Assembly (NCBI GenBank): GCA_905178155.1 | Contig: CAJINV010000010.1 | Coordinates: 1,633,182-1,697,181, forward strand | Length of the DNA stretch: 64,000 nucleotides | Reading direction: 5' to 3' | DNA from: Amoebophrya sp. A120 | Taxonomy: Eukaryota > Protista > Dinoflagellata | Shown here: in pieces, positions 9,004-64,000 of the stretch | Numbering within the stretch: the stretch's first letter is position 1 | Layout: every line of letters starts with the position of its first letter | The notes under the pieces: model-generated | The model's input: the letters and a program-made list of their open reading frames with translations, nothing else | The model's database searches: none | What the model was told of the DNA's origin: nothing | Translations under genes and position numbers: made by a program

Positions 9004-11556
9004 ATGCTCCTCCGTCTTTCCCGCCCGTTGCACCGTGCGGCAGGCGCCGCGCAGCTGCAGCAGAACGCCAACCCGGCCATCGTACGGAAAGGCAGCACGG
9101 GCCTGGCGCCAAACCAGCAGGCGGTGGACGGCAGGGAGAGGTTAGTCGTTCTCGGGTCCGGTTGGGCCGGGTACCCGTTTCTGCAGACGATTGACACCAA
9201 CCAGTATCAGACCATCATCGTCTCACCGAGGAATCACTTCCTCTTCACGCCCCTGCTCGCCAACGCGGCGACCGGCGGAAGCGACATCGGGTCCATTTGC
9301 CAGCCGGTAAGGACGCTTTGCGCGAACAAGCAGGCGCGGTTCTACGAGGCGAAAGCGGTGGCGCTGGACAAGCAGAAACAGATCGTGCAGTGCAAGGCGC
9401 TGGATGGGAGAACCTACCCGCTCAAGTACGACAAACTCGTCATCGCCTGCGGGTTCCAGGCAAATGACTTTGGGATCAAGAACCTGCAAAAGCACGCCTT
9501 TTATCCTGTTGGAAAAGCATCGCACTAGTGGATATATAGAAATCGCATGACAAATTTTATCAGCATGACAAATGGAATTTGCAATGCAGATTCATGTAAA
9601 GGAAGGGATTTCTGATACTGATGCATGACTGCAATATCAATTAGTGCGTCGATGCTTTTGAAATGCATACCTTTTTCATGAAGGAGACCGCGGACGCCAG
9701 ACGGGTACACGACCACGTGATGTCCTGCTTCGAGGACGCATCTATCTACTGTAAATTTCCCGTACACGTACAAATGGAAATGCTGTCTCTGCATGAGAAA
9801 ACTGGGCTTCGATCCTAGGTTAGCATGACAAGTGTTGCGCTCCAAATGGCCCATTTGATGGGTGAAATTTGTGATGCATCTTGTACACGTACGGGAAGCT
9901 TGTATTGCATAGCCTCCACGATCATCACACAAGAACCCGTGGACGACCGGCTGCTCAAACGCACCCTGTCCTTTGTCACGGTCGGCGCCGGGCCGACGGG
10001 GACGGAGTTTTGCGCCGAACTCGCGTCTTTCATCAAAAACGACATCGAGAAGCAGTACCCGTATTTGGCAGAGTATGCAATACAAATTTCCCGTACATGT
10101 ACAAGATGCATCACAAATTTATTCGCTAATTTGGAGTGTACTAAACACTTGTCATGCTAAACTAGGATCGAGACCCAGAAGTTTTGTCATTCAGAGACTG
10201 CATTTGTGCGTGTACGGGAAATTTCCTGTGGATACAGAGCACTGGTCAGTGCACTTGATCGAGGGGGGACCGAGAATCTTGGGTCCGTTTCAGAACGAGC
10301 GGTTGCAGACCTACGGGTACCGACACTTGACGGAGACGCAGGGGGTAAGTTGTCTAAAATGTTACACGCTTCTACAGATTACACTCAGGCATGACAAACT
10401 TCGCTTAGCATGCATTCTAATATGCAATACAAATTTCAAGATTTCCGAAAAAATCTCAGGTCCAAATCCACCTGAATTCCCCCGTCGACTCCGTCACCGC
10501 AAATCGGATCGACCTGAAAACCGGCCAGTCCATCGACTTCTCCACGCTCGTTTGGTGTGCTGGCATCAAGGCGCTGCCCTTCGTGCAGAAGCTGGCTTTG
10601 ACGAAGAACGCCCGCGGAAATCAGATCTTGACCGATGGCCAGCTGAAGGTGAAGGGGGAGGAACACATCTACGCCATGGGAGACTGTGCGACGATCGAGG
10701 TATTATCAATGTGATATACAACGACCACTAGAGTTGCTAAAGATGACGAATGTAGTTTTTTCTTGTCATCATGCAGGAATGAAATGACACTACACATGCA
10801 GCTTGATTTGCCTTGCATAGGCTGCAAGACTAACTTTATTTATCATCCAAAACTACAATATCAGGACTACCCGCTCCCCCAGACCGCACAGATCGCGTCT
10901 CAGCAGGCGCTGTTCCTTGCCAAGTCGTTCAACAAGAAGTCGTCGAAATCTCTCCGGTATGCATTGCAAAAGTATCGTACTAGTAGTAATTGCAATACAA
11001 ATTCGCGCAGCATGACATATGGAATTTGTCGTGCTGATTTGCCTCGGGAACAACGAGATTTGTAATTATGCATAAACGCAATTACTACGAGTGCGACACT
11101 TTTGCGCTGCATATCCGCTTCCAGCACGTCGACCGCGGCATGCTCGCCTACGTGGGCGGCACTTCTGCGTTGTACCGGGCCCCGAACCCCTTTCCGCATT
11201 TGACCGGGATGGTAGGGTACTTTACCTGGCGCAGCGCCTACTGGTCCATGCAGTTGTCCATGCGAAACCGCCTCCTCCTCGCCTCCGATTGGATGCAGCG
11301 GGCGGTCTTCGGTCGGGACTTGACACGGCTCGGCCTGGCGTCCGACCCGATCAACGCCAGTCCAGACGCGTTGACCTCGAAAGTGGAAGAGAAGGATTTC
11401 ATGATGGCCAAAACGCACGGCGAAGGCCCGGAAGAGGACGAGGAGGAGGACCACATTGCGGCGGTTGTGTCCAAGGCCAAACAGAACACGGAAACTGCAG
11501 CAACGAATGGCGGCGTGGTCCGTCGCCGCCCGCAGCAGTCGGTGGCCAGTGCGTGA
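9004..11556 (+). CDS. NDH2: Type II (alternative) NADH:ubiquinone oxidoreductase, 532 aa
   Basis: LVVLGSGWAG, VSPRNHFLFTPLL, YDKLVIACG, VGAGPTGTEFCAEL, IYAMGDCA, PQTAQIASQQA, WRSAY..MQLSMRNR; 4 introners + GT-AG introns 10345-10459 and 10700-10864; spliced length 1599 nt; Arg/Leu/Ser N-terminal presequence. Confidence 0.93.
9502..9669. mobile_element. Introner family A
   Basis: TAT..ATA, TIR core AAAAGCATCG; TSD ccttt/ccttt. Confidence 0.85.
9743..9911. mobile_element. Introner family D (opposite orientation to 10074)
   Basis: TIR core TTCCCGTAC; TSD gcatc/gcctc. Confidence 0.85.
10074..10234. mobile_element. Introner family D
   Basis: TIR core AAATTTCCCGTACA; TSD cagag/cagag. Confidence 0.9.
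10958..11113. mobile_element. Introner family A
   Basis: TATGCA..GCAAAAGT.TCG; TSD tccgg/tccgc. Confidence 0.9.
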
Positions 11557-14543: not shown

Positions 14544-17500
14544 ATGACCTCTCCCGCTCAGAATGGCGCCCCGGCCGCTCCGGGTGCTGTGCCCCAGGCC
14601 GCGCCCGCCCCGACGGCGGAGGGTGGCGTCGCGAACGTGTGGAACGTCATCTCCGGTGATACCTTCGAGGTGTGCATGGGCGTGAACAAGGGGCACGTGG
14701 ACTTGAAGCGCATCACCATCGCGGGGATTCTGGCGCCGCGTCTTGGGATCAAGTCGCAGCAAGTGGACACGAAGGATGAGCCCCTGGCCTGGGAATCCAA
14801 GGAGTTTTTGCGGAAAATGCTGTTGGCGAAGAAGGTGCAGTTTCGGGTTTTGTACAAGTCCGCGAGCGGTGTATGCAATACAACTTTCCAGTACATGCAC
14901 AAAGTGCATCACAAATTTCACCAATTTGGACGGTAACACTTGTCATGCTAAGCTAGGATCGGAGCCAAGTTTTGTCATGCAGAGACTGTGTGTGCACGTG
15001 TACGGGAAATTTACTGTGGATACGGGGACCGAGATTACTACGAGGTCCGGATTGCGGGCGAGAAGACGCACGTGGGGTTGAAATCACTGTCCGCAGGAAT
15101 GAGCAAGATCGCCCCGGGGAACCAGGTAGAGATTTGTACTTTATTTCTTGCTGATGCATGTATGACAATTTTTGGTAGTAGCAGTTTACTCTCATGTGTA
15201 TTTTTTCTTGACCTGTACCTAACGCAAAGATTTACAACTGATGCAAAAGTTCATTATATCATCGCGAAAATAAACAGCACAAATTAACTTACGCTTACAA
15301 GTAGACGTCGCTTCTGTTACCCCTTAATTGCTGGGTAATACTACTACTACTACTACTCCAAATTCAGGTGAAATCCCTCAACCTCTACGCGGACTTGGAA
15401 GTCGCGGAGAACGAGGCCAAGTCACAGGCTCTCGGCGTCCACGCCGCGATGGCCCCCGTCCGCGAGCTCGCCGCCGCGAACGACGATCCGGACACGTTTT
15501 TGGCGCAGAACAAGGAGAAGCTCCGCCCCTGTGTGGTTGAATTCATCAAGGACGCCGGGGGCTACCGGGTGGTGTGCCTTCCCACGGTGGAGGACCCACG
15601 GTATGTGACGGTGCAGGTCTTGCTCTCCGGAGTGCAGAACCCAAGCTTCCGAAGGTATGTTTTTATATGGTGTTCTTATAGTTTGTCATGCGTTCTAGGC
15701 AGCTGGAGGCTCTCATCTAAATCTGTCAACATGCACAAATTTCATAAAACTCCATAATCACATATTTTGTTCAACATCGTCATCCAAACATAAAAACAGG
15801 GAAGCCGGGGGTGTTGAGGTGGAGTCACAACCCGGAAACGGTGCCTTCTTCGCCCGCGCGTTTGCCATGGAGCGGTTGCTCGGCAGGGAAATCAACCTGC
15901 GAGTAGAATCCATTCAGAGACAAGGGGCGCCGGGGAGTCAGAACGTATTTGCATCTTAGCATTCTTGCACGACAAGTGGTGATTAACTCTATAATACAGT
16001 TCTGTTCCACATGACGTTGACGTCAAGTTCGTAGAGGTGGTCATGCATTTTGTGAGCATCGATCGAGATTGTTTATTGTACTCAGCGGTCTACTAAATTT
16101 GTGTTGCGTAATACCGTTCCATAGAATTGCGCTACTTCCTCTATTTCAGGTATTCTTCCTCGGGTCCCTCGTCCACCCGGCAAAGGGCTCGATCGCCGAA
16201 TTCTTCCTGGACGCCGGTTTCGGTCTATACGTCGACTGGTCCGCCCAGCGCTGCTTTTCCGGCCCGGAACAGCTCCAAAACGCCCAAAAACGGGCCCAGG
16301 ACTCGCGGAAGGGAAGGTGGAAGAACTGGGACGGCAGCTCCGATTCCTTGGATTCCTTCGAGTTCAACGGAAAAGTCACGGAGATCTGCTCCGGGGATGT
16401 CTTGCGCATTGTCAACACGGAAGCGCCGGATCGCAACGAACGAAGGTAACAACAAGTACCTACTGTATATCATTCTAGCCTGATCTACTTCATCTTGAAA
16501 AAGTACTAGGGACTAGCTCTCCCTCCCAGGATCTTATGACCACACTACGTTTTGGTTTTGCCCTCGGCACCTAGCGTCTTACACCAACATGATCTGCGTC
16601 GTGCCCCTATGTAAAAATGTTGCATTCGAAAAGCGCATTTCTTTGTAGAGGCGGAGCGTCGAAGCGTAGTTCAAGTTTTGAGCGTTTAAATCTCTGTGAT
16701 TAGACAACACAACATCACATGTCCTCTACTTTTTCTATTTGAGAACAACAACTGGCTGTCTATCAGGTACTACCTCGCCTCCGTCCGCGGCCCGCAGATC
16801 ACTCGTGGTGGCAACAACCAAGACGGCTGGGGCCCGGCTGTTGTGGAGTACATGAGGAAAAAGTGCATTGGAAAGCAGTTCAAGGTCCGGTTGGAGTACA
16901 AAAAAAACATCTCTGTCTTCGGAGAAGGGAATGCCCACCCGCCTGCGAGTAACGAAAAAACGGGTGATATGTACTTCGTGACCCTTACCGACGCAAACAA
17001 GAAAAACATCGCGGTCGAAGCGGTCGAATCCGGTATGCTCAAGGTCTTGGCCAACTCTGGTGGGGCGGAGAGCATGAACGAGCGATCGCGCGACTTCGAT
17101 GCTTTGATGGAAGCAGAGCAGGCAGCGATCTTGGCCTCGAAGGGGATGCACGCTGGGGAAGAAAAGGCGCCGAAGCAGCCGGTACTTCTAGGGGGATTTT
17201 TTTTTGTTTTTTGTTGAGCGAGAAGTTGACGAGAACTGTCCATTGGTTCCGTTTATCAGTCTCATTCATCAACATCAAGAGTGATTTTTACGTCGTTGTC
17301 ATACAACCACCATACAATTCATCAACATCTTCTCCAGGTCTACACCGAGCTGATCCTCCAGCCGCCAAATGCCCCGAAGTCCCGTATGAGACTGCACAAC
17401 TCCCCCTCCTTCTCATTTGTCATGCAGGCGCTCTCTGCATGACAGAATTCGGAAGCGCGCCAAACAGTACTACACTAGAACTAGAACTGCATGATGAACT

Positions 17501-19202
17501 TGTCATGCGTAGGCTCCACGTGTACTGGTTTCTGTTTTGCTGTTCATGCCATACAAATGAGGGGGAGTAGTTGTGCACTCTCATATCCCGCGGCCCCACC
17601 ACCAAAAAGGAGCTCACCGAGCGCGCCAAGGCGTTTGAGTCCCAGCTGTGTGCCAACAGGAACGGGCACGACGCCACGGTTACGTATCTGATGAACGGTT
17701 CCAGGATGCGGATTAAACTCATCCACGAGAAGATTCTCATGAACTTCCAGATGAACGGCGTCCGCGCCCCCAACGCGGAGAGGCAAATGCCGGCTACCTC
17801 CGCGATGGCCGCCAACATCCCGAAAGCCGAGCCGTTCGGGACGGAGTCGCTGCAGTTTGCCAGGGAACTGGTCATGCAACAGGACGTGAAGGTGGTCTTG
17901 GACCGCGTCGACCCGGCGGGGACCTTTCAGGGCACGCTGTATTTGAAGAAGGGCGGCAGCCAAAAGGGACCGGACATGGCTACGATGCTGTTGGAGAAGG
18001 GGTTGGCGTACTGCGATCAGTGGTGCAACAACCAGAGCTACTTCACGATCGAAAGCAGGGCAAAGACGGCGAAGTATTGTTGTTGATACAATTTTTGATA
18101 AATACGCTCCTGATTGTTCATCGCTGCCACATGATGATCTTATGTTGACTCTGATCTTATGTTTGTCATGCAAATAACCCAATATCAGGCTTAACTACTG
18201 GTCCGTCGAGCATGAGGACCTCTCTGCCGTCCAGGAGCAGACCCAGAACCTCGCGGGCCAGCCGGTGAAGGGTGAAATTTCCCAGATCAACAGCTTGGAT
18301 TCCTTCTACCTCATTCCCGCGGGCGGCGCGCAGCTGAAGATTCAGAACGAACTGAACCAGCAGATCTCCAAGTTTGAAGAAGTCTCCCACCCGCAGAAGC
18401 GCTCTCTCTACGCCGTGCAATACTGGGAAGACAAGAAGTGGTACCGGGGAAGGCTCGAGGGGAAGGGAACCGAGGGTCAGTTTTCCTTCTTCTTCCCGGA
18501 CTTTGGCTACACGGCGGATGTGGACAGTGTGAGAAAAATCCCCGCGGGCAGCAGTTTGTTGACCACCCCTGGGGTTGCGATGCACTGCGCCTTGTACGGC
18601 GTCAGAACGAACGACGAGTACTGGGAACAGGCCTGCGAAACCTTCTTCAAGTGCACGGAAAAGAAGACCGTGAACGGTAATATAGCTTTAGCAAATGAAC
18701 TGCGCTTGCTTTGCAGACGTTGACGTATGAATATTAGCATGAGAAAATTCTCTTTCACTTTCAGTTTCACCACTCCTGTATCCGCATGACAAAATCTCAA
18801 AATGTAAACTATCCAGGCTCTATCGAGAAGTCCGCTGGCGGGCAGTCGTACTGCGTTCTCTTCGCTTCCGGAATCTGCGTCAACGAAGCCCTTGTGAAGG
18901 ACGCCGTGGCCCGATTGACCAAGAAGGAGAGCAAGCCGCTTTCTGTCGACTACAACCAGTGGAAAAAGGCGGAGACGGAGGCCAAGCGCGGCCGCGCCAA
19001 GATGTTATGAACTGCAAAAGTATCGTACTCGTATTGTAATCATGCATTACAAATCCTGTTCTTTAGGCAAATTAGCATCTGAAATTTTATTTCTCATGCT
19101 GAGGAAATCGAAATTTGCAATGCATCTATACGAGTACGATACTTTTGCAATTCATAGATGTGGCGCTACGGAGATGTCGGCTCGGATGACGAGGACTACT
19201 AG
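14544..19202 (+). CDS. SND1: Tudor staphylococcal nuclease (Tudor-SN/p100), 938 aa
   Basis: SN-domain motifs VISGDT, IAGILAPR, DEPLAWESKEFLRK, ICSGD, YYLASVRGP, AEPFGTESLQFARE; Tudor KWYRG..FFPDFG; C-term MWRYGDVGSDDEDY*; 3 introners + 7 GT-AG introns (15126-15367, 15655-15799, 15945-16149, 16446-16766, 17182-17337, 18074-18188, 18677-18816); spliced 2817 nt. Confidence 0.92.
14872..15022. mobile_element. Introner family D
   Basis: Similar to 10074-10234; TSD cggtg/cgggg. Confidence 0.88.
17385..17585. mobile_element. Introner family C
   Basis: TIR TATGAGA.TGCACAACT; TSD tcccg/tcccg. Confidence 0.9.
19006..19156. mobile_element. Introner family A
   Basis: TIR TATGAA.TGCAAAAGTATCGTACTCGTA; TSD gatgt/gatgt. 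Confidence 0.9.
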
Positions 19203-19638
19203 ACGAATGCGAAGCGCTACTTCTTGTTCACACCGCGATGTTTTTTTCAAAATCGTCGTGTTGACAGGTGATAAATAGCCAGTCGTCAGACTCATACTGT
19301 GCAACTACCAGTACAACTAGTACGAAACCGAAAGATGATGCTAGATGAAATGCGTATAATGTAAGGACCACTCCAAAACACGAATACAACACTCTCGTGT
19401 ATGCAAAAACAGTTTTTCAAAGGGATTCAGAAGATTGATTTTTCACATGTCAAGACTGTATCAAAGGTGCAGGTGGCTTTATTGCAGTTGGATTTCGTAG
19501 GCTGCTGAAGTTACCGTGTGCGATCTTGATGAAAAATGACAAACGCTCTGCTTTTGGCGCGGATCATAGATGTTTTTTTTCTTGCTCAAGAATAGAATAG
19601 AAGTACTTTGAACAACACACTTCCTCGTGGATAATGTG

Positions 19639-22599
19639 TTGGCGAGGTATTCACCGATAGGTTATTTGAGGTTTATTTCCGACAGACTGCAATTTTTTTT
19701 GGCGAAAAAAAAAAAATCGCTGGGCTGAAGAGCCCTGATTGCCTTCGCGCTGGCAATCGGAGTTGTGGCGTTTAGGAGCCTGCGTCGCCTGAGCTTTTAA
19801 GCCACTAGCTGTTGACGGACATTGGCCCCCATCGCATTGCTTAATGTTTTTCCGGGTTGGCCTGTTGTGCTAGACCGGGTCGGGCGGGTCAGGACCTGCG
19901 TGGCTTGACGCGCAAGATCGCACGCAGCGCGCAGCGCTTCCAGGCGTCTTCGTGGCCCCCGTCCTGTGACAGTGGGGCCGCATTGAATTCGGCCTGGCGC
20001 ACCAGCCACACCGGCGCCCGACGGTCCCGGCCAAGAAGACGCCGCGGCGCGGTGAAGCGCTCTGCGAAAACTTTTTTGCTATGGGCCGGCGGCACAGCTG
20101 ATGGGTTCGCCTGCTTGCGCGGCCTCCCCCCTGGCTTCGCGATGGCTTTGGTGGTTGGCCGGCATCGGGCCTCTCCCAAGCAAAGGCTGGGGTCTCGCAT
20201 TGGCAGCGGTGCTTGAGGAGCAGCACACCACCCGGGGTCCTGAAAAGAAGAGCAGGCTTGGGCGGCCGGAAGTCTTTGCGGGTCACCGCCATGCCCCGGC
20301 GCCCGGGCCCGGCAGGGGCGTTCTTTTTCCGGGCCCCCCGCGCGGAAGGGGGGGTAACAGCTGCCTAAGAAAAATGCCCGGCCGGCCCCTGGATACAAGC
20401 GCGCCGGCCAAAGAAGGTGGCGAGCAGGGAAACGCAATGAAAACCGCCAAGCCCCAGCCTCCCGCGGCGGCTGCTTTTGCCCCCGTGAAAGCCCCCCGAA
20501 GCCTGCCCCCCCTATTCTTAAAGCTTTGCCCGGCGCCTGCCGCGGCCCGGCCGCGCAAAATGCTGGCGCGCCACAACCGCCCCGGCGCGCCTTCCTGCTC
20601 TCAGGAGGCGCCATCGGCTGCCGGGCAAAAAGAAAAGGCCGCCGGCGGGGGGGCCAGCAGGATGCGCGACTAGCTCGGCCCCGCCCGCGCAGGTGCTTAG
20701 GCTGGGGCTTGGGGCCCGGGAAAGGTGTCGCGCGGCAGCGGGGGCAGCTCTATGGGCAAAAAGAGACCGCCCCCGCGCCCCGCGAATGGGGCGCAGCCCC
20801 GGGGACAAGAAAGGAAGCGACGCAACCCTTTGCATTTTCCCCAGCTATCGCGGCTTGGCGCCGTTGTTGCCAAGCCGCCCGTGGGCCGAGGGCCAGCGGC
20901 CTGCGCCCAGGGGCGGTCCTCCTCGGGCAGGACTGCTCACGGGCGGCGACCGCTTGTTCGCATGCCCCCGGGCCTGCCGCGCCCCCCGGGCGACCCCGTC
21001 CGGGGGGGTAGTTGGAGGTAAATTTCTTACCGGGCGAAATTTGCGAAATATTTAGGTTCGTCTGCCCCTGATATTTACAAAATATTTAGCTCGAAACGCG
21101 ACCACAGTGTTTTCCCATTGAAATCATTAAGGAGCCGAATCCGGCCGCGTTTCGAGCTAAATATTTTGTAAATATCAGAAGCGTTCCGAGCTAAATTTTC
21201 GCAGTGTTCCGGCAGCCGGGCCGCGGACCGGATTGGCGCTCCGCGAGGGCTTCCGGGGCCCCGGTGGTGCCTCTCCGACGCAGGCAGCAGGGCGACGGGC
21301 CCCAAGCCCCCGCCCGGGGAATGCAGGGTGGGCCCGGGGAAGAACTCGTGGGCAACGTGAAAAAGGCCGCAGAGGCTCCGCCGGCAAGGCCGGCGTCAGC
21401 GATGTCCGCGTGGGGGCTCTTCCGTTGCCCGGCCGGTCGCCCAGAGGATGTGGGTGGGCGGCCCCTTGGTTTCGGGGAAGGCCCCTGCAGTGGGAGAGGG
21501 TTATCGCAAGCTACGTGGCGCGCGTGTCCGCGCAACACCCGGGGCCCCCCGTCGCAGACCTTAGCCCGCCGGATGGCGCCGCCGCCTTCCGAGCCACTAT
21601 CGCGCCCTTGTGCCCGGGCCCGGCCGCAGCGCCTTTTTGGGATTTGCCCTCTGCCCGGCGGCACGCGAGGAAACCACGCAAAAGGCCCAAACCCCCGGCA
21701 GGCCGCGGCCGGAAAAAAGACCGGGCCGCGGGGCGGGCTTACCTGGAGACGCGCCGGCAGCCGGCCGCGTTGTTTTTCCGCCGCCCGGGCGCGTGTGCAT
21801 GTTTCTGAAGTTCCCGAGCACCGGCCTGGCTTTTTGCAGAAATCCCCCCGCTTGTATTGCGCAAATCGGCCGAACAAAGCCGGCGCGCAGCGGGTGGCCC
21901 GGCGCTTCCTTTACCATGCCGCGGCCCCGACGCTCCGTTGGGGCATCCTGGCAAGCAGCCTCGAAGGACACGGAGCAGGGGCACGCGCAGCCGGGCAGCG
22001 GCCACACGGGGGGGCCGCGGCGTAAAGGGAGGTGGCAGGGGCCAAACGAAAACAGGCAGGTCGCGAAGGAGGGTGGGAGGCCATGCGGCAATTGCCTGCT
22101 AGTGTGGGGCCCGCAAAAACGCAGCGGGGCGAAACCACACGCACGGGCCGCGACGCGGTCTCGCCGCTGATGGCCGTTCCCCAGTCTTGGGTCGCTTCGA
22201 AAAAGTAGGCGCGCCAGGAGGCGCCCCGGCCTTTCCTTGAGATAGGCCGCCTGGCGGTTTCGGCAATGGGCCTTGCGGCAGTGCACGAAGCCCGTGCTGC
22301 TGCGGTAAAAATGGCTTTTGGGGGTGCGGAGGAGTTCCGGGTGGTGTGCCTTGCAGTGTGGCGTGTCGCTCGGGAAAATCATCCGTGCGATTAGCCCGCA
22401 GCGTCATCTCCTTGCCGCCCTCATGGGGGTGAGTGTGTGTCGTGCCCCGTGCCGTGCAGCTGACAGCCATAAAGGAGAGGCCATGCTCAGGGGCCCCCAT
22501 ATCAACTCACGACTGGCCGCGGCTTGGCAAAAATGAACTTTGCATCCGAAAAATGTCGGAAATTTCGCCTGCAATACCCATCGGGCGATTCCTCTCCAA
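19639..22599. mobile_element. ~3-kb GC-rich non-autonomous element with imperfect TIRs and a central perfect inverted repeat
   Basis: 19639-19684 vs reverse complement of 22554-22599 roughly 70% identical (shared atttccgaca); no TSD or transposase found. Confidence 0.55.
21068..21178. repeat. Perfect 33-bp inverted repeat with 45-bp spacer
   Basis: CTGATATTTACAAAATATTTAGCTCGAAACGCG at 21068-21100 and its exact reverse complement at 21146-21178. Confidence 0.95.
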
Positions 22600-44900: not shown

Positions 44901-46189
44901 TGCGGGTTACCACGCAGAGCAGATGCGCATGGCGCTGATCTTCGAACTGGACCCGACTTTTGTCTACCCGTATGACCCCGAGCCGGTGGAGGCCGCGGGG
45001 TCGCGGTTGGCGAAGTGCACGATTCAGGCGGTTCGGGAGAATTTGCCAGAGGAGCCGGTGAAGGAGCTGTTCCACTTAATGGAGACCGGGGAAGTGTCCC
45101 CGCAGGCTGCCATGGAAAAGATGTTGCAGCCGAAGTTGGATAACGTTTGCAACGCGACCAGCCACGTGCATGAGGCGATGGAGATGATGATGAATATGAC
45201 GGATAACTGTAAAAATTTCTGCATGACCTTCAAGATGTGGGAAGAGACCAACTACCAGATGAGTTGCGCGAACCGAATTGCTAAACCGATGTTCGACAAC
45301 TCGTTCGCCTACAACGCCATGCAGGAGCCGCTCTGCCGCCCGGACGTGGAATGTAAGCTGTTTAACGAGATGGCCCCGGTGCACGAGAAAAACAACATTG
45401 TGAACGCCAAGGTGGTATCAAGTGCAAAAGTGTCTGGGTCTGGAAGAAAGCGCCATGGTCACGCAGCTCTTCCATGACCCATGAACTCTGGAATGCAGGA
45501 CCTAGCATGACAGATTCTGTGCGATCTCTCTCATGTCTATCCTGCATGAGAAACTCCCTCCCGACTTGGTCAAAAGCAAAACTGGACGACTTTTGGTAAT
45601 CATGCAACACAGATTTTTGCATGCTTCAGATTTAGCATGACAAGTTGAGTTCTTCCACACCCAGACATTTTTGCAATTCATAGGTGGCCGGCACGCGGCT
45701 CCGCGAGCGCCGCTTGCGGCGACTCGAGATTGAGAACCGGCGGGTCAGACGGCTGGAAGAGTCGAAGGACTTGAAGAAGAAGTGTATGTCCATTGACAAC
45801 GTTGAATACTTATGCTCTGCAAAAATATCGCACTCGTACTCATTGCAATCATGCATGTCAAATCTTGTTTCTTAGCCAAATCAGCATTACAAACTCCATT
45901 TCTCCTTCTGAGAAAATTTGTATTGCGATTTACACTAGTGCGATGCTTTTGCAATGCATAGTACTGTGCGAGCGACAACAATCAAGTGGCCGGGATGACG
46001 AGCGAAGAGTTGGAAAAGCAGCGGCGCCTGGAGTACTGGGAGGAGCGGGGCATCGATTCCATCGCGACGGCGACGAACCCGGCGAAAGCGCAGCGGATCT
46101 CGAAGTTCCGGTCGAACCGAAAGCAGCTGCGGAAGAGCCGGCGGATGAACCGCCGGGGAAAGAACCGCCGGGTCCGGCGGCGGAACTAA
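26950..46189 (+). CDS. Giant ~4032-aa protein: N-terminal EF-hand pair, one TM helix, then Cys/Thr/Pro-rich modules alternating with RRL/RKL-rich basic spacers
   Basis: Removing 31 introners (+5 bp each) and GT-AG introns 27711-27850 and 29725-29918 gives 12099 nt with the frame continuous at every junction; FDKDGDGELHKDE, WDVDQNGLITVSE; TM KIAIAGLVGVIVLLTVLMFAMGYAAA. Confidence 0.82.
27440..27590. mobile_element. Introner family A
   Basis: TSD gtttc/gtttc. Confidence 0.9.
27942..28178. mobile_element. Introner, degenerate, unassigned
   Basis: TATC..GATA ends, internal tttgtcatgc; TSD decayed aagct/cctct; frame restored by 5-bp rule. Confidence 0.6.
28267..28423. mobile_element. Introner family A
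   Basis: TATGC..GCATA; TSD decayed tccgc/tgaat; frame restored. Confidence 0.75.
29509..29666. mobile_element. Introner family A
   Basis: TSD aatag/cacag. Confidence 0.8.
31816..32053. mobile_element. Introner family C
   Basis: TSD tcgga/tcgga. Confidence 0.9.
32292..32510. mobile_element. Introner family C
   Basis: TSD ctgtc/ctgtc. Confidence 0.9.
32959..33224. mobile_element. Introner family B
   Basis: TSD cgcac/cgcac. Confidence 0.9.
34939..35147. mobile_element. Introner family F
   Basis: TIR TAT.CAAGAAAAAAACTGTGTAAGTGTAA; TSD aacac/aacac. Confidence 0.9.
35896..36147. mobile_element. Introner family B
   Basis: TATCAAATGCA ends; TSD catga/cataa. Confidence 0.85.
36357..36526. mobile_element. 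Introner family A
   Basis: TSD tgaag/tcaag. Confidence 0.88.
36653..36974. mobile_element. Introner family E
   Basis: 322 bp, similar to 58511-58832; TSD ttcgc/ttcac. Confidence 0.85.
37387..37599. mobile_element. Introner family C
   Basis: TSD agacc/agacc. Confidence 0.88.
37744..37960. mobile_element. Introner family C
   Basis: TSD tctga/tctga. Confidence 0.9.
38072..38221. mobile_element. Introner family A
   Basis: TSD tcgaa/tcgaa. Confidence 0.88.
38399..38551. mobile_element. Introner family A
   Basis: TSD agtga/agtga. Confidence 0.9.
38643..38795. mobile_element. Introner family A
   Basis: TSD tcgtc/tcgtc. Confidence 0.9.
39323..39574. mobile_element. Introner family B
   Basis: TSD gggtt/gggtc. 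Confidence 0.9.
39636..39892. mobile_element. Introner family B
   Basis: TSD atctc/atctc. Confidence 0.9.
39952..40106. mobile_element. Introner family A
   Basis: TSD atgat/atgat; right end ACA instead of ATA. Confidence 0.88.
40546..40848. mobile_element. Introner family G
   Basis: TIR TATCCTG.GTAAAAACGTCCCCACCC; TSD caatg/caacg. Confidence 0.9.
41238..41449. mobile_element. Introner family F
   Basis: TIR TATCG.A.GAAAAAA.TGTTTCACTGTA; TSD cattg/cattg. Confidence 0.9.
41551..41802. mobile_element. Introner family B
   Basis: TSD ggaaa/ggaaa. Confidence 0.9.
41859..42086. mobile_element. Introner family C
   Basis: TSD agaga/agaga. Confidence 0.88.
42191..42340. mobile_element. Introner family A
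   Basis: TSD gcagc/gcagc. Confidence 0.9.
42407..42669. mobile_element. Introner family B
   Basis: Perfect 31-bp TIR TATCAAATGTAAAAATGTCTGGGTCTGGAAG; TSD gtgca/gtgca. Confidence 0.93.
42857..43011. mobile_element. Introner family A
   Basis: TSD tccga/tccga. Confidence 0.9.
43252..43542. mobile_element. Introner family G
   Basis: TIR core AAAA.CCTCCCCA; TSD gcggt/gcggt. Confidence 0.85.
43769..43995. mobile_element. Introner family C
   Basis: TSD gcccg/acccg. Confidence 0.9.
44298..44522. mobile_element. Introner family C
   Basis: TSD gtttt/gcttt. Confidence 0.88.
45416..45682. mobile_element. Introner family B (opposite orientation to 59495)
   Basis: TSD ggtgg/ggtgg. Confidence 0.9.
45811..45960. 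mobile_element. Introner family A
   Basis: TSD atact/gtact. Confidence 0.9.
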
Positions 46190-49030: not shown

Positions 49031-49228
49031 GTGTGGCAGCTTCACTATCGTCCTTTTGTCGCGTATCGGTCAAGAAGGGTTTAATCTATGAATGAAGGTG
49101 ACTGAGCTATCCGGGCACATTAATGGATGCACCGCTAGCGGGGGTCATGTCTTCATCACGGTCCGCAACTTGTTATATCTAAATCTTAGACTTTTGCTTC
49201 GACGCCCAGCTCGTAGCACTGTAAGTGG

Positions 49229-52200
49229 ATGATGTCACCCGCCGCGCGCTGGTTTTTTGCTCCACCTCCGTTGAGCGGGTATACCGCTCATTTGTTTTTC
49301 TTCGGCGCCGCGTTTGCCCCCACGCTCCTGTCCCTGCTTGTCTCCCCCGCCTCCGCAGAAGACCTACCTCGCACGATCCAGTACGACGATCCGGCACTTC
49401 TAGAAAAACACGCCTTCGCTGACCTAAAACTTACGAAAAACTCCATCTGGCCACTGCCTACATCAAACCCCGACGGAACAGCCGCGCCCTCCCTTGACCC
49501 CGAGCAGGACGACCAGACGGCCGTTTGTGACAGCGCCGAAGACCAATACCTCCCAGGATTCTCCTTTCAATGGCGATTTCACTTTCCGAAAGACCTGTTG
49601 CGTGATTCTAGCAACACGGAGACGGACCTTCTTCAAAAAGAGCATTTGTTGAAGAAAAAACTCCACGAAACGCTAACCCCCACCCTAGCGGAAGTCGAGC
49701 AGGAAATTTTTGGCCGCCACAAGTCGAAGCATGAGGCGGCGTTTCAAGGGAAAAAGGTTTTGCTCGATGTTTACTTCGAAAAGGAACATATTTTTGACGT
49801 GGACGGGGAACCGGAACCAACGAAATCATTATCAACGGCCGACGGTTCGTTTTTGGATGCTGTCTGGGGCCCCGTGGGAAAAAACATCGATTTGGAGACA
49901 GAACAAAATTCCGCGGACCATTCTTTAGACAAAGAAACCTACTCTCTAGAAATCGTTCCAAGAACAACCACTACTACAGAAAGCGAAGACAATTACAATG
50001 CTGCCGCATCCTCTTCTTCTCCTATGCAGATCCTTATCACTGCGAGACACCGCGTAGGGCTTCTCCATGCCCTCTCCTCCCTCCAGCAGCTCATCAAATT
50101 CGACTTCAAGACCCAGCTGTATTACCTACCAAAAGCCTGTAAGATCCAAAACGACAAGCCGAAATTTCCCTACCGGGGTTTGATGATTGACACGGCGAGG
50201 CATTTCCTACCCATACAACTGATCAAACGAGCGATAAAAGCCATGCGGTATTTGAAACTCAACGTGTTGCATTGGCACATGACGGAAGATTCCAGCTTCC
50301 CGTTCAGTTCCGAGCTCTTTCCGGAACTCGCGGAAAAGGGCGCGTACTCGAATTTCGAGACGTACACGAAGGAGGATTTGAAAAACCTTGTGCACTATGC
50401 GGACTTGAACGGCATCACAGTCATTCCGGAAATCGACGTCCCCGGGCACATTGCTAGTCTCTGGAAATCCAGACCGGAGTTGTTCTCCTGCAAACCGAAT
50501 GCGGACACGAAATTCCAAAAATACGTCCCGTACCCGTTTTCCAACCTAGCGCTGATATGCCTTGCAAAAGTATCGTAATCGTAGTAATTGCATTTATGCA
50601 TTACAAATCTTTTTCGTTTTCCTAAGGTCAATCAGCATTACAAATTCCATTTCTCATGCTGGAGGATTTTTTAATGCAATTCATACTAGTAGGCACGATG
50701 CTTTTGCAGCTCATAGCTGAACCCCGTGAGTGAAAGGACGTACCAGTTTTTGGAGAGATTTCTGCTAGAGGTAGGCGAGGTGTTCGGAGGCGTTAGTGGA
50801 GATGTTATGCCGAAGGTGTTCCATGTTGGTTCGGACGAAGTGCCCGAGGACTGCTGGAAAAAATTGATCGGGAAAAGCGTGCGGAGGATAGAAACGGAAA
50901 AGGAACTATTGCAGGGCGGCAGTCCTAATAGTCTTCGCGGTGCAGGGACACAAGAAACCGGATCAACCGCATCTACAACTTCTAGTGCTTCGGAATCCAT
51001 CATGCAGAGGTCGGAAGTGGAAAACGTTTTGTCCTCGAAAAGTGACTTGATGCAGAGAGGACAAGATGTTACAGAAGATGAGGAGGTGGCCCAGCTGAGA
51101 CAGCAAGCAGTCATCGACGGGGCTGCTGGAACAACTCAACCTGGAATGATGGTGGATGATGGTACATCACAACTTCCAGCTTCAAACTACCTCGAAAAAA
51201 AAGTCGCGAAAATTTACTCCGATGAATTTCTCGAAGACCAGCAACAGCAGCAAGGAGAAGCAAGGCCAACTGCATCTAGAACAAGAACCCCACATCAGCC
51301 TCGGCTGGACTTCCAGCTGGCCGGAGTCACTGATTTCCAGAAGCAACTTCTCGAAGATCATTTCCCAGACGGCAAGATCAGGAGCACGAGCCAGATGTTT
51401 GACTACTTCACAGCAAGGGTGGCGGCGATTTTGCGAGGGACAAAGGGCGGGAGGACGACAAGACTGACAGACGGTTTTTCAACGTCAGCATCATCCTCCG
51501 TAGTCGACCTAAAAACAACATCGCAACCTCTTCAAAAATCTCGCCCCATGTTTTGGGACGAAGCTATCAATCACGAAAACACAATGGCTGACCTGCAAAA
51601 CCCTATCATAGAGGTCTGGAACTTCGGCCGGTCTGCAATACCCATCCTCAAACGCGGCTTCGACGTGGTTTTGGCCAGCAGCAACGTCTGGTACTTAGAC
51701 CACTTAGACGTAGAGTGGAAAAACATCTACTTTGGCCCGATATCCCGGAAAAAACACCAATCCCCATCCATTTTTTGCATGACAAACACTGCAAATTATG
51801 CATGTTTTGCATGACAAATTGGATGGGGGTGGTTATTTTTTCCTGGATACGCGGGAGAGCTCCACGATCCAGAGCTGCAAGATTATGGGAGGCAGCGCAA
51901 GCGGGAGAATTTGAATTATGGCAAGCAGTCCTCAAAATCAAATATCGGCAAGGTCCTCGGCGGAGAAGCGCCCATGTGGTCGGAGCGGGTGGACGGCAGT
52001 AACTTCTGGATGAAGGTGGTGCCAAAGATCGCCCTAGTCGCCGAGAGGTTGTGGAGCAACCCTAGTGCGGACTCTCAATCCGCGGAGTCTACCGCTTGGG
52101 TGAACGCGCAGCCGCGACTGCAAAAATTACGGTGTTTACTGATGGAATTAGGGGAGTACGATCCGGGCGTGGTAAACATGCGACTAGAGCCGACTTCTGC

Positions 52201-54740: not shown

Positions 54741-55152
54741 TCTTTGATTTGCGATCAAACGATCTCATCAATTTTTGGTCAGGGAAGGATGGAAACAAGC
54801 TGTCCGCCGGAGTAATGTTCAGCTCTAGCTGTGTTTTGCCGCGATGTCGCGGTGTCGTTGCGGTTGGTGTTGTAATGGTACTCCGTGGAGCGCGTGTTCC
54901 GTGATGATTGTTGAGACAGAATTCGCGACGCCATTGCGTCTTTCCTTTCATTCTTTTTTTCCACATGTGTTCGCTTTTCGAATTCCTTCAAGTGGCTGGG
55001 GTTTGGTTGGTATCTATGAATATGCAGGGCGGCCGTGGTCTGTTCTCGCGGCCGAAGGAGCGAGCGTTGTTGTGCGCACAATTTCAGCGGCCGCCGGTCG
55101 GGGCCGCACATGCAACAGCAACAGGCAAGCCTTTCTGATTCAAAAGAAAGAT

Positions 55153-58100
55153 ATGAAAAAAATGCCGCCCACGATCTGTCGTCGCTCGCACGCGCCCGAC
55201 CGACCCTGGCGAGCCTATCTCGTGCCTGCCTTTGTCCTGTGGGTCCAATGTGTCGAAATTTCCCGCTCCGGAACATCAACCCTCGCCCGTGCAGAAGAGG
55301 GTGCCGCCGCTGCACCAGTACCCTCACGACAGGCGTCAAGCGCTGAGTCTCCTCCACCACCTGGAACTCCCACCACCAGCAACACCAACAGCATCTCCCC
55401 CCAGGAGCAGTACATCAACCATTGTATGGCGGTTCACGATCAGGTGGATGAGGATTATCGAGCGGTGTATTGCGCAACGAGACAAGCGATAGATCAAATC
55501 AACAAGCACAACCTGGAGGTGGAGAACCAAGAACACGCAGCGGCGCAGCTACAGACACAAGCTGCTGCTAGTTCTGATGCAGCTGGAGCAGGAACTTCTT
55601 CTTCACCAGCGGTGACACAACATCAAGTAGCCCCAAATACGAAACCAAGACCCGCCAGTACAACTCCTAGACAGCACCTCGTGATCCTGGATTTCTTCCT
55701 CGGCTGGGGCGGGTACATGCAGGCGATCTGGCGCGCTTTGGCCGACGCCAACATGGTATGGAATGGAAATATGTCTGGGTCTGGAAGATTGCGAGATTTG
55801 TCATGCTTGTCTGGCATGACCAAAAAGTTTGTGATGCGTCTCCAAGAAGAGACCCTTTTGCCTGTCATGCAAAAACGCTGTTTGTCATGCGAAAAACGCA
55901 ACACAAAGAAGTGCAGATATTTCTCATGCTTGGTTGTGCATTACAGAGCATTCACTATTCCCAACGCAGCATTACATATAAAGTGTTGTACAACACAGAT
56001 GACAGATGAAACAGATGACACAGATGATACAGATGACCAACTTTGCGAATTTTGTTGAGGGGCTTTTTTTGGTCATCTGTGTTCACAGATGACGAGCATT
56101 CGAACAGCGAAAACCGGAGCCCCAAAATCAAAAACAAAAGAAACAAAAAAGAGAGCCGGCTCGCCAGCGCCGCCGAGAAAGTGCGCGCGCTTTCACGGGG
56201 GGAGCAGATGGAGCAGCAACACCGCGGCCATAGGCCCCACCCTATGGGCCGATGCGCCAGCATTCCCAATGGCAAAGGTACGAGCACGACTGTGCTGCGC
56301 AGGTACGCCGATAGCTAGGCGGTGCCGTGCGCTGCACCTGCACGCCTCGAACAGATTCTGGCGAGGAATAGGGTAGACCGACGACGTTCCGCCTCATTCC
56401 AAGTCTCTGGCTCCGCCCAAGAAATGGCGAATGAAGTGCGGGCCGTCATCTGTCATCTGTGCCTTTTTTTTTGCTTCCCGTCGAAATTTCGTCATCTGTG
56501 TCATCTGTTCATCTGTACCTTCGTCATCTGTGCCAGCCCCCCCTTATACAACAGCCTATTACAAGTTTCCAGACCCAGACACTTTTGCATTTGATACATG
56601 GACGGCTCGAACAATCTGCAGAAAAACGTTCTCTACGCGGGTTTCGAAACGGAAAGGTGGAACGTGGAGACGCTGGTGCTGCAGAAAGTCGCGGAGCTGT
56701 GTCAGGCGATGCATATGACACTGCACAACCCCCTCTCCTCCGGCTCATTTGTCATGCAAAATACCAAATCCACCCTTTCCATCTTGGAACTTTTTGCATG
56801 ACAAGTTCTGGCAGCTCAAGCAGAACTACAATATCCTGGGTGAATTTGTTATGCAAAACCTGCACTCTTGCCGACGCTTGTATTGCTACTCATGCCATTG
56901 CAAATGAGGGGCAGTTCGAGTTGTGCACGTTCATAATGCAGAACCAGGCGAAAGAAGCGGAAAACCAGTACGGGTTTGCGTTCCACGAAAACCACGGCGT
57001 GATCAATGTGATATGCACTGCAAAAGTATAATATCGCAATCGTAGTCTTTGCTCTTATGCATGACAAATTTCTTTCCTAGGCTAAAACAGCATTACAGCT
57101 TTCATTTGTAATGCTGAGCTAATTTGTAATGCCATTTAAACTACATGTGCGATGCTTTTGCATTCCAAATTTGAACACGGAGTGCAACGTCACTTTCGTC
57201 GACGGCTCGACCGGGGGGCTATCCTGTGCAAAAGTATCGTACTCGTATAAATGCAGGTCTTGCATTACAAATTTCTTTATCAAGGCAAATCAGCATTACA
57301 AATTTTATTTCTCATGCTGAAAAAACTTGTAATGCATTTGTACAAGTACGATACTTTTGCAGTTCATAGGGGCTGCCAAGGGTGGACTCCGTGCAGGAGT
57401 ACTTCGGCCAGTTCATGCTGGCGAAAGAACCGCCTCCTGGCACTAGCGATAGTAGCGCAGCGGATGTTTGTGGTGGAGATGCTGGACGATCGCAACTACA
57501 CTCTGCCGAAGATAAAGATCCGGTCGCCGCTCTGATGCCGCAGAACCTGCTACCGAGACAGCAAGCAGCTTTACGCACCGCCGACGGGATGCGAACCGAT
57601 AGGAAATCCTTCGCGGACGTGACTCACCATCCAGCACGGAATATGCATTGCAAATGCGCCTGCGTCTGGAAACTTGTGATGCTGGTTGGCGAATTATGAG
57701 GACGTAGTCAAAAGGGACGGCTCAGCATGACAAGTTTCTAACTTGTTGGTAGGTGTTGTCTACTCTGCATGACAAACACCGTTTCTGCATGACACAAAGG
57801 CTGGGCTTTCCTTTTGCTTTTGGGCAACGTCGTGCATCGCAGCCTTGGGAGTCATGCTCGGCGAGGGAGCATGGTAAATCCTGCACTCTTCCAGACGCAC
57901 AGACATATTTGGAATGCATACGGAATCTGCTCCGCCAGGTGATCCCCGAGGCGGTGAAACGGCACATCCACGACGTGCGCGTGGTAGCGACTGACACATT
58001 AGAGGGGCCTGCAGACGGAATGGCGATTTTGACACGAGATCCCTCAGGAGATGAAGCTGCGACGTGTAGTACATCACCTTCTACGGCAACATCAATTTCG

Positions 58101-59849
58101 AAAAATACTGACAAAGCACCACTACCCCCTCCACCTCCCCCGCCGCTTCAAAAGCTGATCGAGGAGAGCATCAACTACCAAATCCAGACGGTTTTGCGAC
58201 GAAGGAAAGACGAAACCATATGCCGTCCTCCAATTTTACATTCTCAACTGTTACTTACATGAATTTGTAATGCAAAAACGGCGAAAGTGAAAGGGGGAAG
58301 GTTGCGCCTTTTGCATTACAGATTTGGCACAGATTCAGATGCTGTTTAGCCATTCGGATATTTGTCATGCGAAGCAGCTTAATCGTGGCGATCTTGGTGG
58401 TAAATTTGCACGACAAATCATGTGACAGTTGAGAATGTAACAGTTAAGAACGCCATAAAGCACTACGGCCACCTACGAAGACGCGAGTTACCAGGTGACC
58501 AGCCCGCAGGTATCAAAGAGAAAAATCCCCCCTCCCCATATCGAACAGGTACAGTCCGGAAATTTGTGTTGCTGATTTGAGGTCACAAATCGCATTTGTC
58601 TTGCAAGAAGACAAGGGTAGAAGCTTCCGCCCCATTATGGAAGCGATTTGTCATGCTGTGAGACCTAAAAGGGAGCCGCTTGCCATGCTGCACAACTAGA
58701 ACCATACGCCCCTACCTAGCCTGGGGATCTGGCCGCAATGCCTCTCTGCAATACAAACCTGATTTGTGTACTCAAATACAGCATCACAAATTTCGTTTTC
58801 GATATGGGGAGGGGGGATTTTTCCTTTTGATACCAGGCCGGGCAGATCGACGCGTTTTTGATTTGGGGCGCCGCGTATCCGATGTTGCTGTCCGAAAAGT
58901 TAGGGCCGAATAGCTACAACTCCGTGGGGCCGAGGTATTCCGACGGGGAACGAGCCATGATCCAAGATCTTTTGAAATTGTCCTACCAATTTGCGCACGT
59001 CGCGCAGGTATGCAAGGGGCTGCGGAGTGTCGCCGGGAGTACAAATGGAAACGCGACCTCTTCTTCCACTACGAATGAGAAATCAGCATCACAGAGTGTC
59101 ACTGCTGCCGTTCCTCCAATAGACGTGAAGATCCTGACGTTTTTCGACGCGCCAAGTGCGATGGCGCCGGAGTGGAGCTTGTTAGAGAAATTCTGCAGTC
59201 CGGATTTTGTGTATTTGAACAACATAAACTTACCAAACCACCCCGGGTGGATCCACGAGAGGCTAACCATATGCAATGCAAAAGCATCGTACTAGTAAGA
59301 ATTGCAATGCGAATTGGCTCAGCGTTACAAATAGTAATTTGTAATGCGGATTTCGATTTCCCTTGATCGCTAGATTTGTAATGCATGACTGCGATGAGTA
59401 CGAGTACGATACTTTTGCAGTGCATAAACCAGGATGAGAAGGAACCCAGACGGGACGGAGAGGAGTAGATACAAAGAGATCTACCGTGGGGAATTATGAA
59501 TGGCAAAAATGTCTGGGTCGGGAAGATTGCAGCTTGTCATTGTAAATCTGAAGCATGCAAAAATCTGTGTTGCATGAGTGCCAAAAGCTGTAAACTTTTG
59601 CCCAAGTTGGAAGGGAGTTTCTCATGCAGGATAGGCATGACAGAGACCTCGCAGAGTCTGTCATGCTACGTCCCGCATTCCAGACCTCATGGGTCATGAA
59701 AAATCTGCATGACAAGTCTACACTTTTCCAGACCCAGACACTTTTGCACTTGATAGGAATACCCGGATAGCGATGCGTTCGAGTCCGGGGATATGGTCAG
59801 GGGGGAGTTGTACGGGAAAAGATTGTATGCGGTGCTAATGAAAGAGTAA
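55153..59849 (+). CDS. Unknown 674-aa protein with N-terminal hydrophobic segment, possibly SAM-methyltransferase-like; 9 introners
   Basis: Removing 9 introners (+5 bp) gives 2025 nt open frame; LVILDFFLGWGGY resembles MTase motif I and CNVTFVDGS resembles a DxxFIDG motif (weak); start codon uncertain. Confidence 0.75.
55757..56596. mobile_element. Introner family B carrying a nested insertion
   Basis: TSD catgg/catgg; 840 bp, 253 bp after removing the nested element. Confidence 0.88.
55977..56557. mobile_element. Nested MITE-like element with subterminal ACAGATGA arrays
   Basis: Tandem acagatga on left, tcatctgt on right, tgttgta/tacaaca near the ends, flanked by attaca/attaca. Confidence 0.75.
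56714..56935. mobile_element. Introner family C
   Basis: TSD atgca/atgca. Confidence 0.88.
57012..57169. mobile_element. Introner family A
   Basis: TSD tgtga/tttga; right end AAA instead of ATA. Confidence 0.8.
57220..57368. mobile_element. Introner family A
   Basis: TSD ggggc/ggggc. Confidence 0.9.
57642..57920. mobile_element. Introner family B
   Basis: TSD cggaa/cggaa. Confidence 0.9.
58219..58457. mobile_element. Introner, singleton family
   Basis: TATG..CATA ends, TIR core TTACATTCTCAACTGT; TSD aacca/aagca. Confidence 0.82.
58511..58832. mobile_element. Introner family E
   Basis: TIR TATCAAA..GAAAAATCCCCCCTCCCCATATCGAA; TSD gcagg/ccagg (readable as GT-AG). Confidence 0.9.
59270..59426. 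mobile_element. Introner family A
   Basis: TSD aacca/aacca. Confidence 0.9.
59495..59755. mobile_element. Introner family B
   Basis: TSD ggaat/ggaat. Confidence 0.9.
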
Positions 59850-61478: not shown

Positions 61479-61489
61479 TTCCTAGAACG

Positions 61490-62640: not shown

Positions 62641-62875
62641 ATCTCTTTCCGAATCCGAGGCCAACATTATTTAACGAAGTCCACATTTCTTCATGTTCAT
62701 CCATGTGTAACATATGCACTCGGTCGTCTGGTTTGTGGTTGGTTTTCTTGTGTTCTCTCCATCGCTTTATTTTGGTCCTGGTGTAGCGTCCATCATCAAA
62801 TGTTGTGGTCTACAATTTTCATCTCGAAATTGAAAAACTTGTTCTTCTCAAAACGAAAAAAAATCGCTCATTCCT

Positions 62876-64000
62876 TCACCTCCGCTCTCTCCTCTCAGCA
62901 TCCCGTCCGCGTGACCCGTATTGCCGGTTTCCACCACCGCGTTCCTCTCCACCTCCCCGCTGTGGTCCACCACCAGCTCCTCTATCCCGACTCCGACTCC
63001 GGTGGCTGTGCAACGGCCGCGCCCTAGGCGAATGGTGGTCCACTCGCGGTGGGGTCTTGTGGTGAAATTTCGTGTCCCTCGGCAGCGCAGCCGATCGCCG
63101 GTCCGAGATGGATTCTTGCGCCCGGACGGGTTGCAAAGTGGTAGTTGTCCTGCCGCGAGAGTCGTTGGCTTTATTTCGACGACCGCGGCTGTCGTTGCGC
63201 CGACCACGATCGCGGCGTCCCCGACTGTCGTTCTTGTTCCTGCTCGCGGGCGGCAGAGCACTCGGGCCACCTCCCCGCGATGATGTCGCATTATTATCCG
63301 GCGCATGCGACCCACTTGCACCACCTCCTGCTCCGTTCCTTGACTTGCCCTGGTCCTTCCCGGCGGAAAAATCTTCTTCTGAATCAGATTCAGAGGAAGA
63401 ACTGGACTCACTCGATGAACTTTCCTCCTCTTCCGACTCTTCTTTCTGCAGCAGGTTCAATTCTTGCTGTAACTTCTTCAATTTCGAGTTCACTAATTTC
63501 GATCGCTTCATCTCCTTCTGCCGTTTTTTTTCCGCTTTTTTCTGGTTCTTTTTCTCCTTCTTCAACCGCTTTTTCTCTCGTTTTTCCTCCTTTTTTTTCT
63601 TCTTCAATTCCTCCTTTTTCTTCGCCCGCTCCAAGGATTGATCTCGTTTTTCGATGACTTTCCGCTGGATCAATTCCTCGTCCTTCAACATTTTCATCCA
63701 GTTATCCAGTGCAAAAGTAATATCGCACTCGTACTAATCGCAGTGATGCATCAGAATTCTAGATGTTAAGAGAAATCCGCATTACAGATTCAATTTGTAA
63801 TGCTGAGCCAATTTGAATTGCAATTCATACTTAGTGCGATACTTTTGCAATGCATACCAGTGCTTCATCTCCTTGGCCAATGCGATCGCCATCTTCACGC
63901 CATCCAACGTTGGGGAGAGAACCCGCTCCACGGATTCCAACTGCTTCACAATCGCCTCGCCCTGACGGATGATCGGGGACCGGTACTTGTACTCTAATGG
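62876..64000 (-). CDS. 3' part of a gene with Lys/Glu coiled coil, Ser/Glu tract and Arg/Ser/Asp-rich tail (RNA-processing-factor-like composition), truncated by window edge
   Basis: Frame open from window end (PLEYKYRSPII...EMKHW), joined across introner 63703-63856 to ORF 62876-63697. Confidence 0.7.
63703..63856. mobile_element. Introner family A (in minus-strand gene)
   Basis: TSD ccagt/ccagt; frame restored. Confidence 0.9.

Follow-up and report, generated by a model that had tools for sequence, protein, structure and literature searches.

How do the thousands of introners in a dinoflagellate genome spread, and how are they removed from RNA? Both questions are raised by a 64,000-nt stretch of Amoebophrya sp. 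A120 (contig CAJINV010000010.1, positions 1,633,182 to 1,697,181; hereafter the window, with coordinates counted from its first letter), which is eukaryotic and rich in introns. PMC7789003 puts the repeated introners of this organism at about 30,000 and reports neither a recognised transposase nor a detected U1 small nuclear RNA (snRNA), which leaves both the spread and the splicing of its introners open questions. An earlier note on the window had described a short internal motif, GCAT[GTC]ACAAA, that recurs in symmetric arrays in introner families between positions 9502 and 63856. The new result obtained here is the geometry of these sites, namely a spacing of 31-33 bp between paired sites of the same direction and a 10.5-10.6-bp periodicity. 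We consider it likely from the sequence that this helix-phased array in non-coding introners binds and loads one transposase-type enzyme that would mobilise all families, and that the splice position is set by the element ends.

The motif occurs 68 times in the window (33 forward, 35 reverse) compared with a mean of 0.75 and a maximum of 3 in 100 shuffles, which bears out its reality, and 66 of the 68 strict copies fall inside 9502-63856. Sixty-two copies are located in 52 introners with terminal inverted repeats (TIRs; 10.8 kb) and five in 11 GT-AG introns (1.9 kb); outside introns, a single copy was found in 24.4 kb of exon and none in 23.2 kb of intergenic and untranslated region (UTR) DNA. 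A matrix trained on element interiors yielded the consensus GCA[T/A][G/T/C]A[C/G]A[A/G][A/G]T, which is wider than the motif described before. Its sites occur at 18.2 per kb in introners, a density that is circular for this compartment only, as its interiors trained the matrix, and at 6.2, 0.25 and 0.17 per kb in GT-AG introns, exons and DNA between genes, respectively. Introners contain about four internal sites on average, with almost none located less than 30 nt from an element end. The earlier note had named two outcomes that would speak against the motif, conservation no better than that of the flanking element sequence and equal frequency in intergenic DNA. Motif columns were better conserved than neighboring columns in nine of ten family alignments and strict copies were missing from the intergenic DNA, so that neither outcome was found.

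The arrangement of the sites varies among families, which are designated here by letters coined in this analysis. The family A introner at 27440..27590 exhibits two forward (F) sites followed by two reverse (R) sites, at 27475, 27493, 27508 and 27539, exactly as had been described, with the R sites 31 bp apart. For the family C introner at 17385..17585, described as R-F-R-F, the first three sites were recovered, but the fourth is only degenerate (GCCATACAAA). The persistence of the motif where its surroundings have decayed was also observed: the TAT…ATA element at 27942..28178, with only 2 of 5 positions of its target duplication matching and a TIR score at background level, retains one perfect reverse copy at 27997. 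The proposed symmetry of the arrays applies to families A and D, but not to families G/J and H, which are one-way, nor to families B, E and F, which are lopsided. Family G/J, J being family G reversed, has six consensus sites that all point in the same direction, and family H has two sites in the same direction: its 109-bp representative (51741..51849) carries two forward sites only, 32 bp apart (51777 and 51809).

The 52 curated elements are 109-322 bp in length, apart from a single element that contains a nested insertion and measures 840 bp, and are bounded by TAT…ATA. The families had been thought to carry different TIRs; instead, TAT[GC]N6[AC]AAA is common to all 104 ends and only the inner TIR differs. 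Terminal positions 4-13 are often themselves a variant of the motif, as in the family D introner at 10074..10234, where the terminus forms a pair with a site located 31 bp further in. The TAT and the A-run stay constant, but positions 4-9 vary strongly in all 52 elements; they differ even from one end of a copy to the other, and identical variants turn up in both family A and family B. The 5-bp target site duplication (TSD) is perfect in 33 of the 52 elements and matches at four or more of its five positions in 47.

In RNA contigs, assembled from runs that were guessed rather than recorded to be RNA, exactly the element plus 5 nt is skipped at at least 12 of the 52 elements. The joints cover family A (19006..19156, in reverse orientation, 156 nt; 42857..43011, 160 nt; 45811..45960, 155 nt), family B (42407..42669, 268 nt; 45416..45682, 272 nt), family C (17385..17585, 206 nt; 43769..43995, 232 nt; 44298..44522, 230 nt), family D (9743..9911, 174 nt; 10074..10234, 166 nt; 14872..15022, 156 nt) and family J (43252..43542, 296 nt). 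Reading frames open once the element plus 5 nt is taken out everywhere. The family A element at 28267..28423 has a broken duplication (1/5) and the corresponding RNA piece begins at 28428, so that the cut falls 1 nt ahead of TAT. Under this rule, no constraint applies to the first base or to the last two bases of the intron, which is compatible with the NT donors listed in Table S4 of PMC7789003.

Same-direction site pairs 31-33 bp apart are present in 35 of the 52 window elements and in 98 of 132 elements that were fetched from other loci and lack the pattern used to search for them. Such pairs occur in 13 of 14 families, the sole exception being family I (58219..58457, R-F-R-F); the null mean is 1.65 and none of 5000 trials reached 13, which also applied when any 3-nt window was allowed. 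The spacers of these pairs are constant in length but vary freely in sequence and are unalignable between families, and the motif-masked family consensuses have only a 10-nt C-run in common. Considering all site-to-site distances, the period peaks at 10.5-10.6 bp, including when the pairs are removed or moved as blocks (0/1000 nulls), and it is robust to dropping any one family (10.6-10.8). Phases learned on nine window families predict five held-out families at 10.5 (p=0.001). The fitted offsets of 9.4 for same-direction, 3.2 for F-R and 6.6 for R-F pairs are compatible with one helical face. Seen from the element ends, the first site that points outward falls into one of three distance classes, 31-33, 39-43 or 51-54 nt, in 17 of 18 cases (best period 10.5, p=5e-5). 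The number, order and direction of sites vary among families, yet the phase is kept. The helical repeat of B-DNA is 10.5 bp. Therefore, the simplest inference is a protein that reads one face of the duplex. The earlier proposal of a binding site for a common factor is thus supported and can be narrowed to a putative binder of double-stranded DNA (dsDNA), given the fixed 31-33-bp pairs and the ~10.5-bp phase across families of unrelated sequence. A period of 10.5 bp was absent from the exon lengths between elements (R=0.02, n=88).

Further copies were obtained by scanning metagenomes for two copies of the motif spaced 21-23 nt; among the matches listed, at least 65 loci derive from one other assembly. 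Window elements match 61 of these 65 loci and the elements form clusters of up to 91, in agreement with a repeated, family-structured element, and no similarity was found in the other 63 loci considered (61 metagenome, 2 viral). Among loci without similarity to window introns, those holding many sites are tandem repeats. From 64 loci of the one assembly (one duplicate left out; 231 kb), 192 elements were called by a finder that recovered 43 of the 52 window elements exactly, with two false calls. In copies lacking the search pattern, deviation from the consensus amounts to 2-7% at core positions, 11% in the inner TIR and ~28% in the rest. The two TSD copies mismatch at 6% of positions in these elements and at 8.4% in 45 window copies; judged by this mismatch of 6-8%, the copies are young. 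For young copies, a difference of ~28% in most of the sequence but of only 2-7% in the core is what selection acting along propagating lineages would produce. Elements of 631-1255 bp were considered as transposase remnants and rejected, being ordinary copies that bear nested insertions. Two TAT…ATA elements with TIR in the fetched loci (L061:5779-5889 and L036:1754-2077) lack a strong internal site and represent either another family or decayed copies.

In the mechanism that we favor, a multimeric protein would load cooperatively onto one face of the duplex, and the loaded protein would help to bring both element ends together, cut at TAT and insert the element with a 5-nt stagger. Presumably, only copies that retained sites and phase kept spreading, so that the sites were fixed as the spacers drifted. 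The splice, for its part, would be set by the ends, that is N+TAT on the 5' side, the TIR stem and 4 nt of the duplication on the 3' side, and not by the motif. Several observations weigh against this interpretation. Neither a transposase nor an autonomous element turned up in the ~300 kb examined, in line with Farhat et al. (2021), who report no transposase in A120 (PMC7789003). In viral contigs, the family A and family B TIR patterns gave no matches and the pair pattern gave two, which is about chance level and without similarity to the elements; in prokaryote genomes, a pattern of end plus site had no match. Two family A copies with intact TSD have lost their internal sites. Four of the 14 families are represented by one element each, and the family counts might be too high if families have a hidden ancestor in common. 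The held-out families also score at 11.0 (p=0.004), and 10.0 gives p=0.01, although a period of 11 is disfavored. For inward-pointing sites (10 ends), phasing against the end is not significant (p=0.22), all sites taken together are nearly unphased relative to the ends (R about 0.1), and sites span the whole element, pointing in or out according to family. In addition, strict copies persist in TIR-less GT-AG introns, and the core of window copies deviates less than comparable columns, both of which are taken up below.

If the motif acted in RNA instead, through compacting stems, a branch-point-like signal or a site for an intron-defining RNA-binding protein, its direction should matter. The branch-point consensus is TNAY, and the core reads TNAY on both strands. 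Furthermore, motif bases are more often paired in predicted folds than other interior bases (74% vs 57%), 896 of 2021 pairing with another motif copy, and slight covariation was detected in 2 of 11 pairs of partner sites (p about 0.01). However, higher pairing would be produced by reverse-complement copies anyway, covariation is missing in nine of the 11 pairs, and the consensus sequences of partners do not match at the variable positions. The branch-like T and A deviate in 12% and 7%, respectively, and are thus less conserved than GCA (2-4%), and a helical period would be unexpected on single-stranded RNA. The orientation test is more direct. The symmetry had been proposed to ensure a copy of the motif in either orientation, which was contradicted by family G/J: its sites all point one way and cannot pair with each other, yet its copies occur 5:5 in sense and antisense and are spliced. 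Likewise, sense to antisense numbers are 18:24 for family A, 19:17 for B and 9:6 for C, with F (10:2) the only skew among nine families, strands in the fetched loci being taken from a coding model built in this analysis. The copy at 43252..43542, with six sites that are all reverse, is removed from RNA and its predicted fold has z=-1.45. Introns without strong sites are spliced too, among them the non-canonical 2967-nt intron of another element class at 19633..22599 (+), a control with no site of at least 11 bits. The motif is therefore not required for splicing, and it is neither strand-specific nor present throughout spliced introns, as a splicing cis-element would be. The suggestion of an RNA-level intron definition thus found no support: the reading in RNA is largely refuted by the orientation test and we regard it as improbable.

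Alternatively, all families might descend from one ancestor made of 31-bp repeats, with nothing binding the motif. A terminal 14-mer is indeed common to all families and the terminus is often a motif variant, so that common ancestry as such is likely. A passive relic would hardly explain why motif columns are better conserved than their neighbors in nine of ten families, why spacers have become unalignable between families while their lengths hold, or why site number, order and direction differ with the phase intact. That insertions and deletions in the spacers respect the phase in independent lineages likewise speaks against such a relic, and we assign this explanation a very small probability.

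A host protein that binds dsDNA, possibly a domesticated transposase domain, might sit on the phased sites in chromatin and mark the intron for co-transcriptional splicing. The phase evidence is silent on whose protein binds, and U1 was undetected in either Amoebophrya strain in the account of PMC7789003. The most relevant material comes from GT-AG introns without a clear TIR, 11 of which were defined in the window, nine by RNA joints and two by reading frame. These contain 12 matrix sites (7 forward, 5 reverse) compared with 0.4 in shuffles. All are on the plus strand: two forward sites are present in each of 10345..10459 and 18677..18816, one reverse site in 10700..10864, a perfect reverse site in 15655..15799 (at 15682) and in 18074..18188 (at 18162), one forward and one reverse site in 15945..16149 and in 27711..27850, and one forward site in 29725..29918, the introns at 27711 and 29725 being those inferred from the reading frame. 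No strong site was found in 15126..15367, and 16446..16766 and 17182..17337 have no site and serve as counter-examples. In the fetched loci, 102 GT-AG introns were predicted from noisy calls, of which 23 passed filters and 13 have GTR..YAG ends; four of these 13 predicted introns carry six sites, and three predicted TIR-less introns of other loci keep a 32-33-bp pair.

Neutral decay was simulated at a divergence of 25-30%, which is deep enough to erase the TIR. Strict copies in TIR-less GT-AG introns exceed the simulated number (8 vs 1.6-2.4, p=0.003-0.0002), as do matrix sites (18 vs 8.4-13.4, p=0.003-0.14), although for the latter the excess loses significance at 25% divergence (18 vs 13.4, p=0.14), and after the takeover by GT-AG the decay of the ends may outpace the neutral rate. 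Moreover, the core deviates by 4.4% in the 45 window copies compared with 9.9% in otherwise invariant interior columns, a hint of selection after insertion. The value lies below the TSD rate of 8.4% (p=0.019) but equals half of that rate (p=0.67), which is expected if both copies of the duplication mutate freely. Half of the GT-AG introns (12 of 24; 11 window and 13 fetched) have no site, and the 2967-nt non-canonical intron is spliced without one. The evidence for ongoing host use of the motif in marking introns is accordingly suggestive, not decisive, and a host protein as the primary reader appears possible but rather unlikely. With similar reserve, we raise the possibility of co-option, in which a phased DNA code, once the docking array of a TA-ended transposase with 5-bp TSD, would now be bound by a protein that marks introns. 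If this were true, introns would be defined by dsDNA geometry rather than by RNA in a eukaryote that apparently lacks U1 snRNA.

The ends of Ac, En/Spm and Tn7/Mu carry arrays of subterminal binding repeats. Cooperative binding of a transposase to subterminal motifs has been described for the miniature transposable element with inverted repeats (MITE) Emigrant and Lemi1 (PMC1636448) and for the hAT element Herves (PMC3143072), a precedent for the loading of an enzyme as favored here. Such systems combine short repeated sites inside the TIRs with cooperative binding and asymmetric ends. Likewise, the window motif is short, recurs internal to the TIRs and is better conserved than its flanks. Unlike these repeats, however, one motif, a putative binding site, is found in at least 14 families with unalignable interiors, and its copies occupy elements of 110-320 bp over their entire length on a 10.5-bp lattice, the element being an intron as well.

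The elements correspond to A120 introners as described, which begin with an inverted repeat of TAT, seven loose bases and at least three A (PMC7789003), and are MITE-like and non-coding with NT 5' dinucleotides and short direct repeats, for which the published example shows 5 bp (PMC7789003, PMC12130899). Those in the window exhibit the TAT-N7-AAA repeat, direct repeats within the 3-5-nt range (5 bp here), non-canonical removal from RNA and organization in repeated families. Among rows 1-38 of the 58 on A120 families in the supplement of PMC12130899, family 38 is listed with a "5-bp TSD, TA/TA termini" and integrase-like homology (Gozashti et al., 2025). TA..TA termini are shared with IS3EU/GingerRoot, which have target duplications of 6 bp (PMC10045372, PMC6839031); membership was not assigned, as the duplication in the window is 5 bp. 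GingerRoot TIRs also measure 100-150 bp compared with about 30 bp here, and an integrase-like DDE enzyme would be expected, none of which was found in the ~300 kb examined. IS481EU has TNT..AYA ends and a duplication of about 4, 15 or 25 bp as opposed to 5 bp. The internal motif, its pairing and its phase are not described in the consulted text, legends and tables of PMC7789003 and PMC12130899; "GCAT" is absent from the main and supplementary text of the former and the motif strings from the consulted supplements of the latter. Likewise, no account of motif or phase was found in the wider literature searched, PMC11282704 and bioRxiv 10.1101/2020.10.14.339549 included.

That a motif is shared with exact spacing implies that many families, previously classed as unrelated, have a single protein behind them. 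The motif pair provides a precise bait for catching the mobilising protein, with built-in controls in the form of scrambled sites and half-turn shifts. The analysis also separates the role of the ends, which concerns the splice position, from that of the interior; if the protein aided splicing as well, this would amount to DNA-level intron definition.

Genes hosting introners include those for a pyridine nucleotide-disulphide oxidoreductase (NDH2-like; family A at 9502..9669), Tudor-SN (family D at 14872..15022) and a GH20 glycosyl hydrolase (family A at 50556..50715). Another family A introner is located at 10958..11113, and 63703..63856, also of family A, lies in a minus-strand gene. Outside the range of the earlier note, a family B introner with TIR and 5-bp TSD (1431..1712) is followed by a decayed family B-like introner with a TAC left end (1736..2006). 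The largest host is a gene of ~4,000 codons at 26950-46170 with 33 introns, of which 31 are introners and two are GT-AG introns; two of its exons were scanned against Pfam without a match. In addition to the copies mentioned above, this region contains introners of family A (29509..29666, 36357..36526, 38072..38221, 38399..38551, 38643..38795, 39952..40106 and 42191..42340), family B (32959..33224, 39323..39574, 39636..39892 and 41551..41802), a B-like introner (35896..36147), and introners of families C (31816..32053, 32292..32510, 37387..37599, 37744..37960 and 41859..42086), E (36653..36974, with three 32-33-bp pairs), F (34939..35147 and 41238..41449) and G (40546..40848, with nearly all sites forward). 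Farther downstream, introners of families A (57012..57169, 57220..57368 and 59270..59426), B (59495..59755), C (56714..56935) and E (58511..58832) and a B-like introner (57642..57920) were identified. The family B introner at 55757..56596 contains a nested insertion rich in tandem repeats (55985-56555), and similar nested insertions occur in the fetched loci L007, L011, L025, L031 and L066.

A near-identical piece of family B (45596-45669) was found with different flanks in raw RNA reads of another sample (X9), which indicates that a transcript from some other place still contains the element; this run, from a different strain or locus, holds no information on the window introns. No Rfam family was found within the window. 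The closest named relative of an RPB11-like protein encoded at 6413-6909 is from Amoebophrya sp. A25. The 2967-nt insertion at 19633-22599, located in the 3'UTR of the Tudor-SN gene, is GC-rich, ends in TTGG…CCAA, carries a palindrome at its center (21072-21174) and has a direct repeat of 6 nt; it is excised cleanly in RNA contigs and represents a second class of spliced mobile element. Finally, an intergenic element of ~1.07 kb at 4836-5900, which we take to be PIF/Tourist-like, has a long TIR and TAA at either flank.

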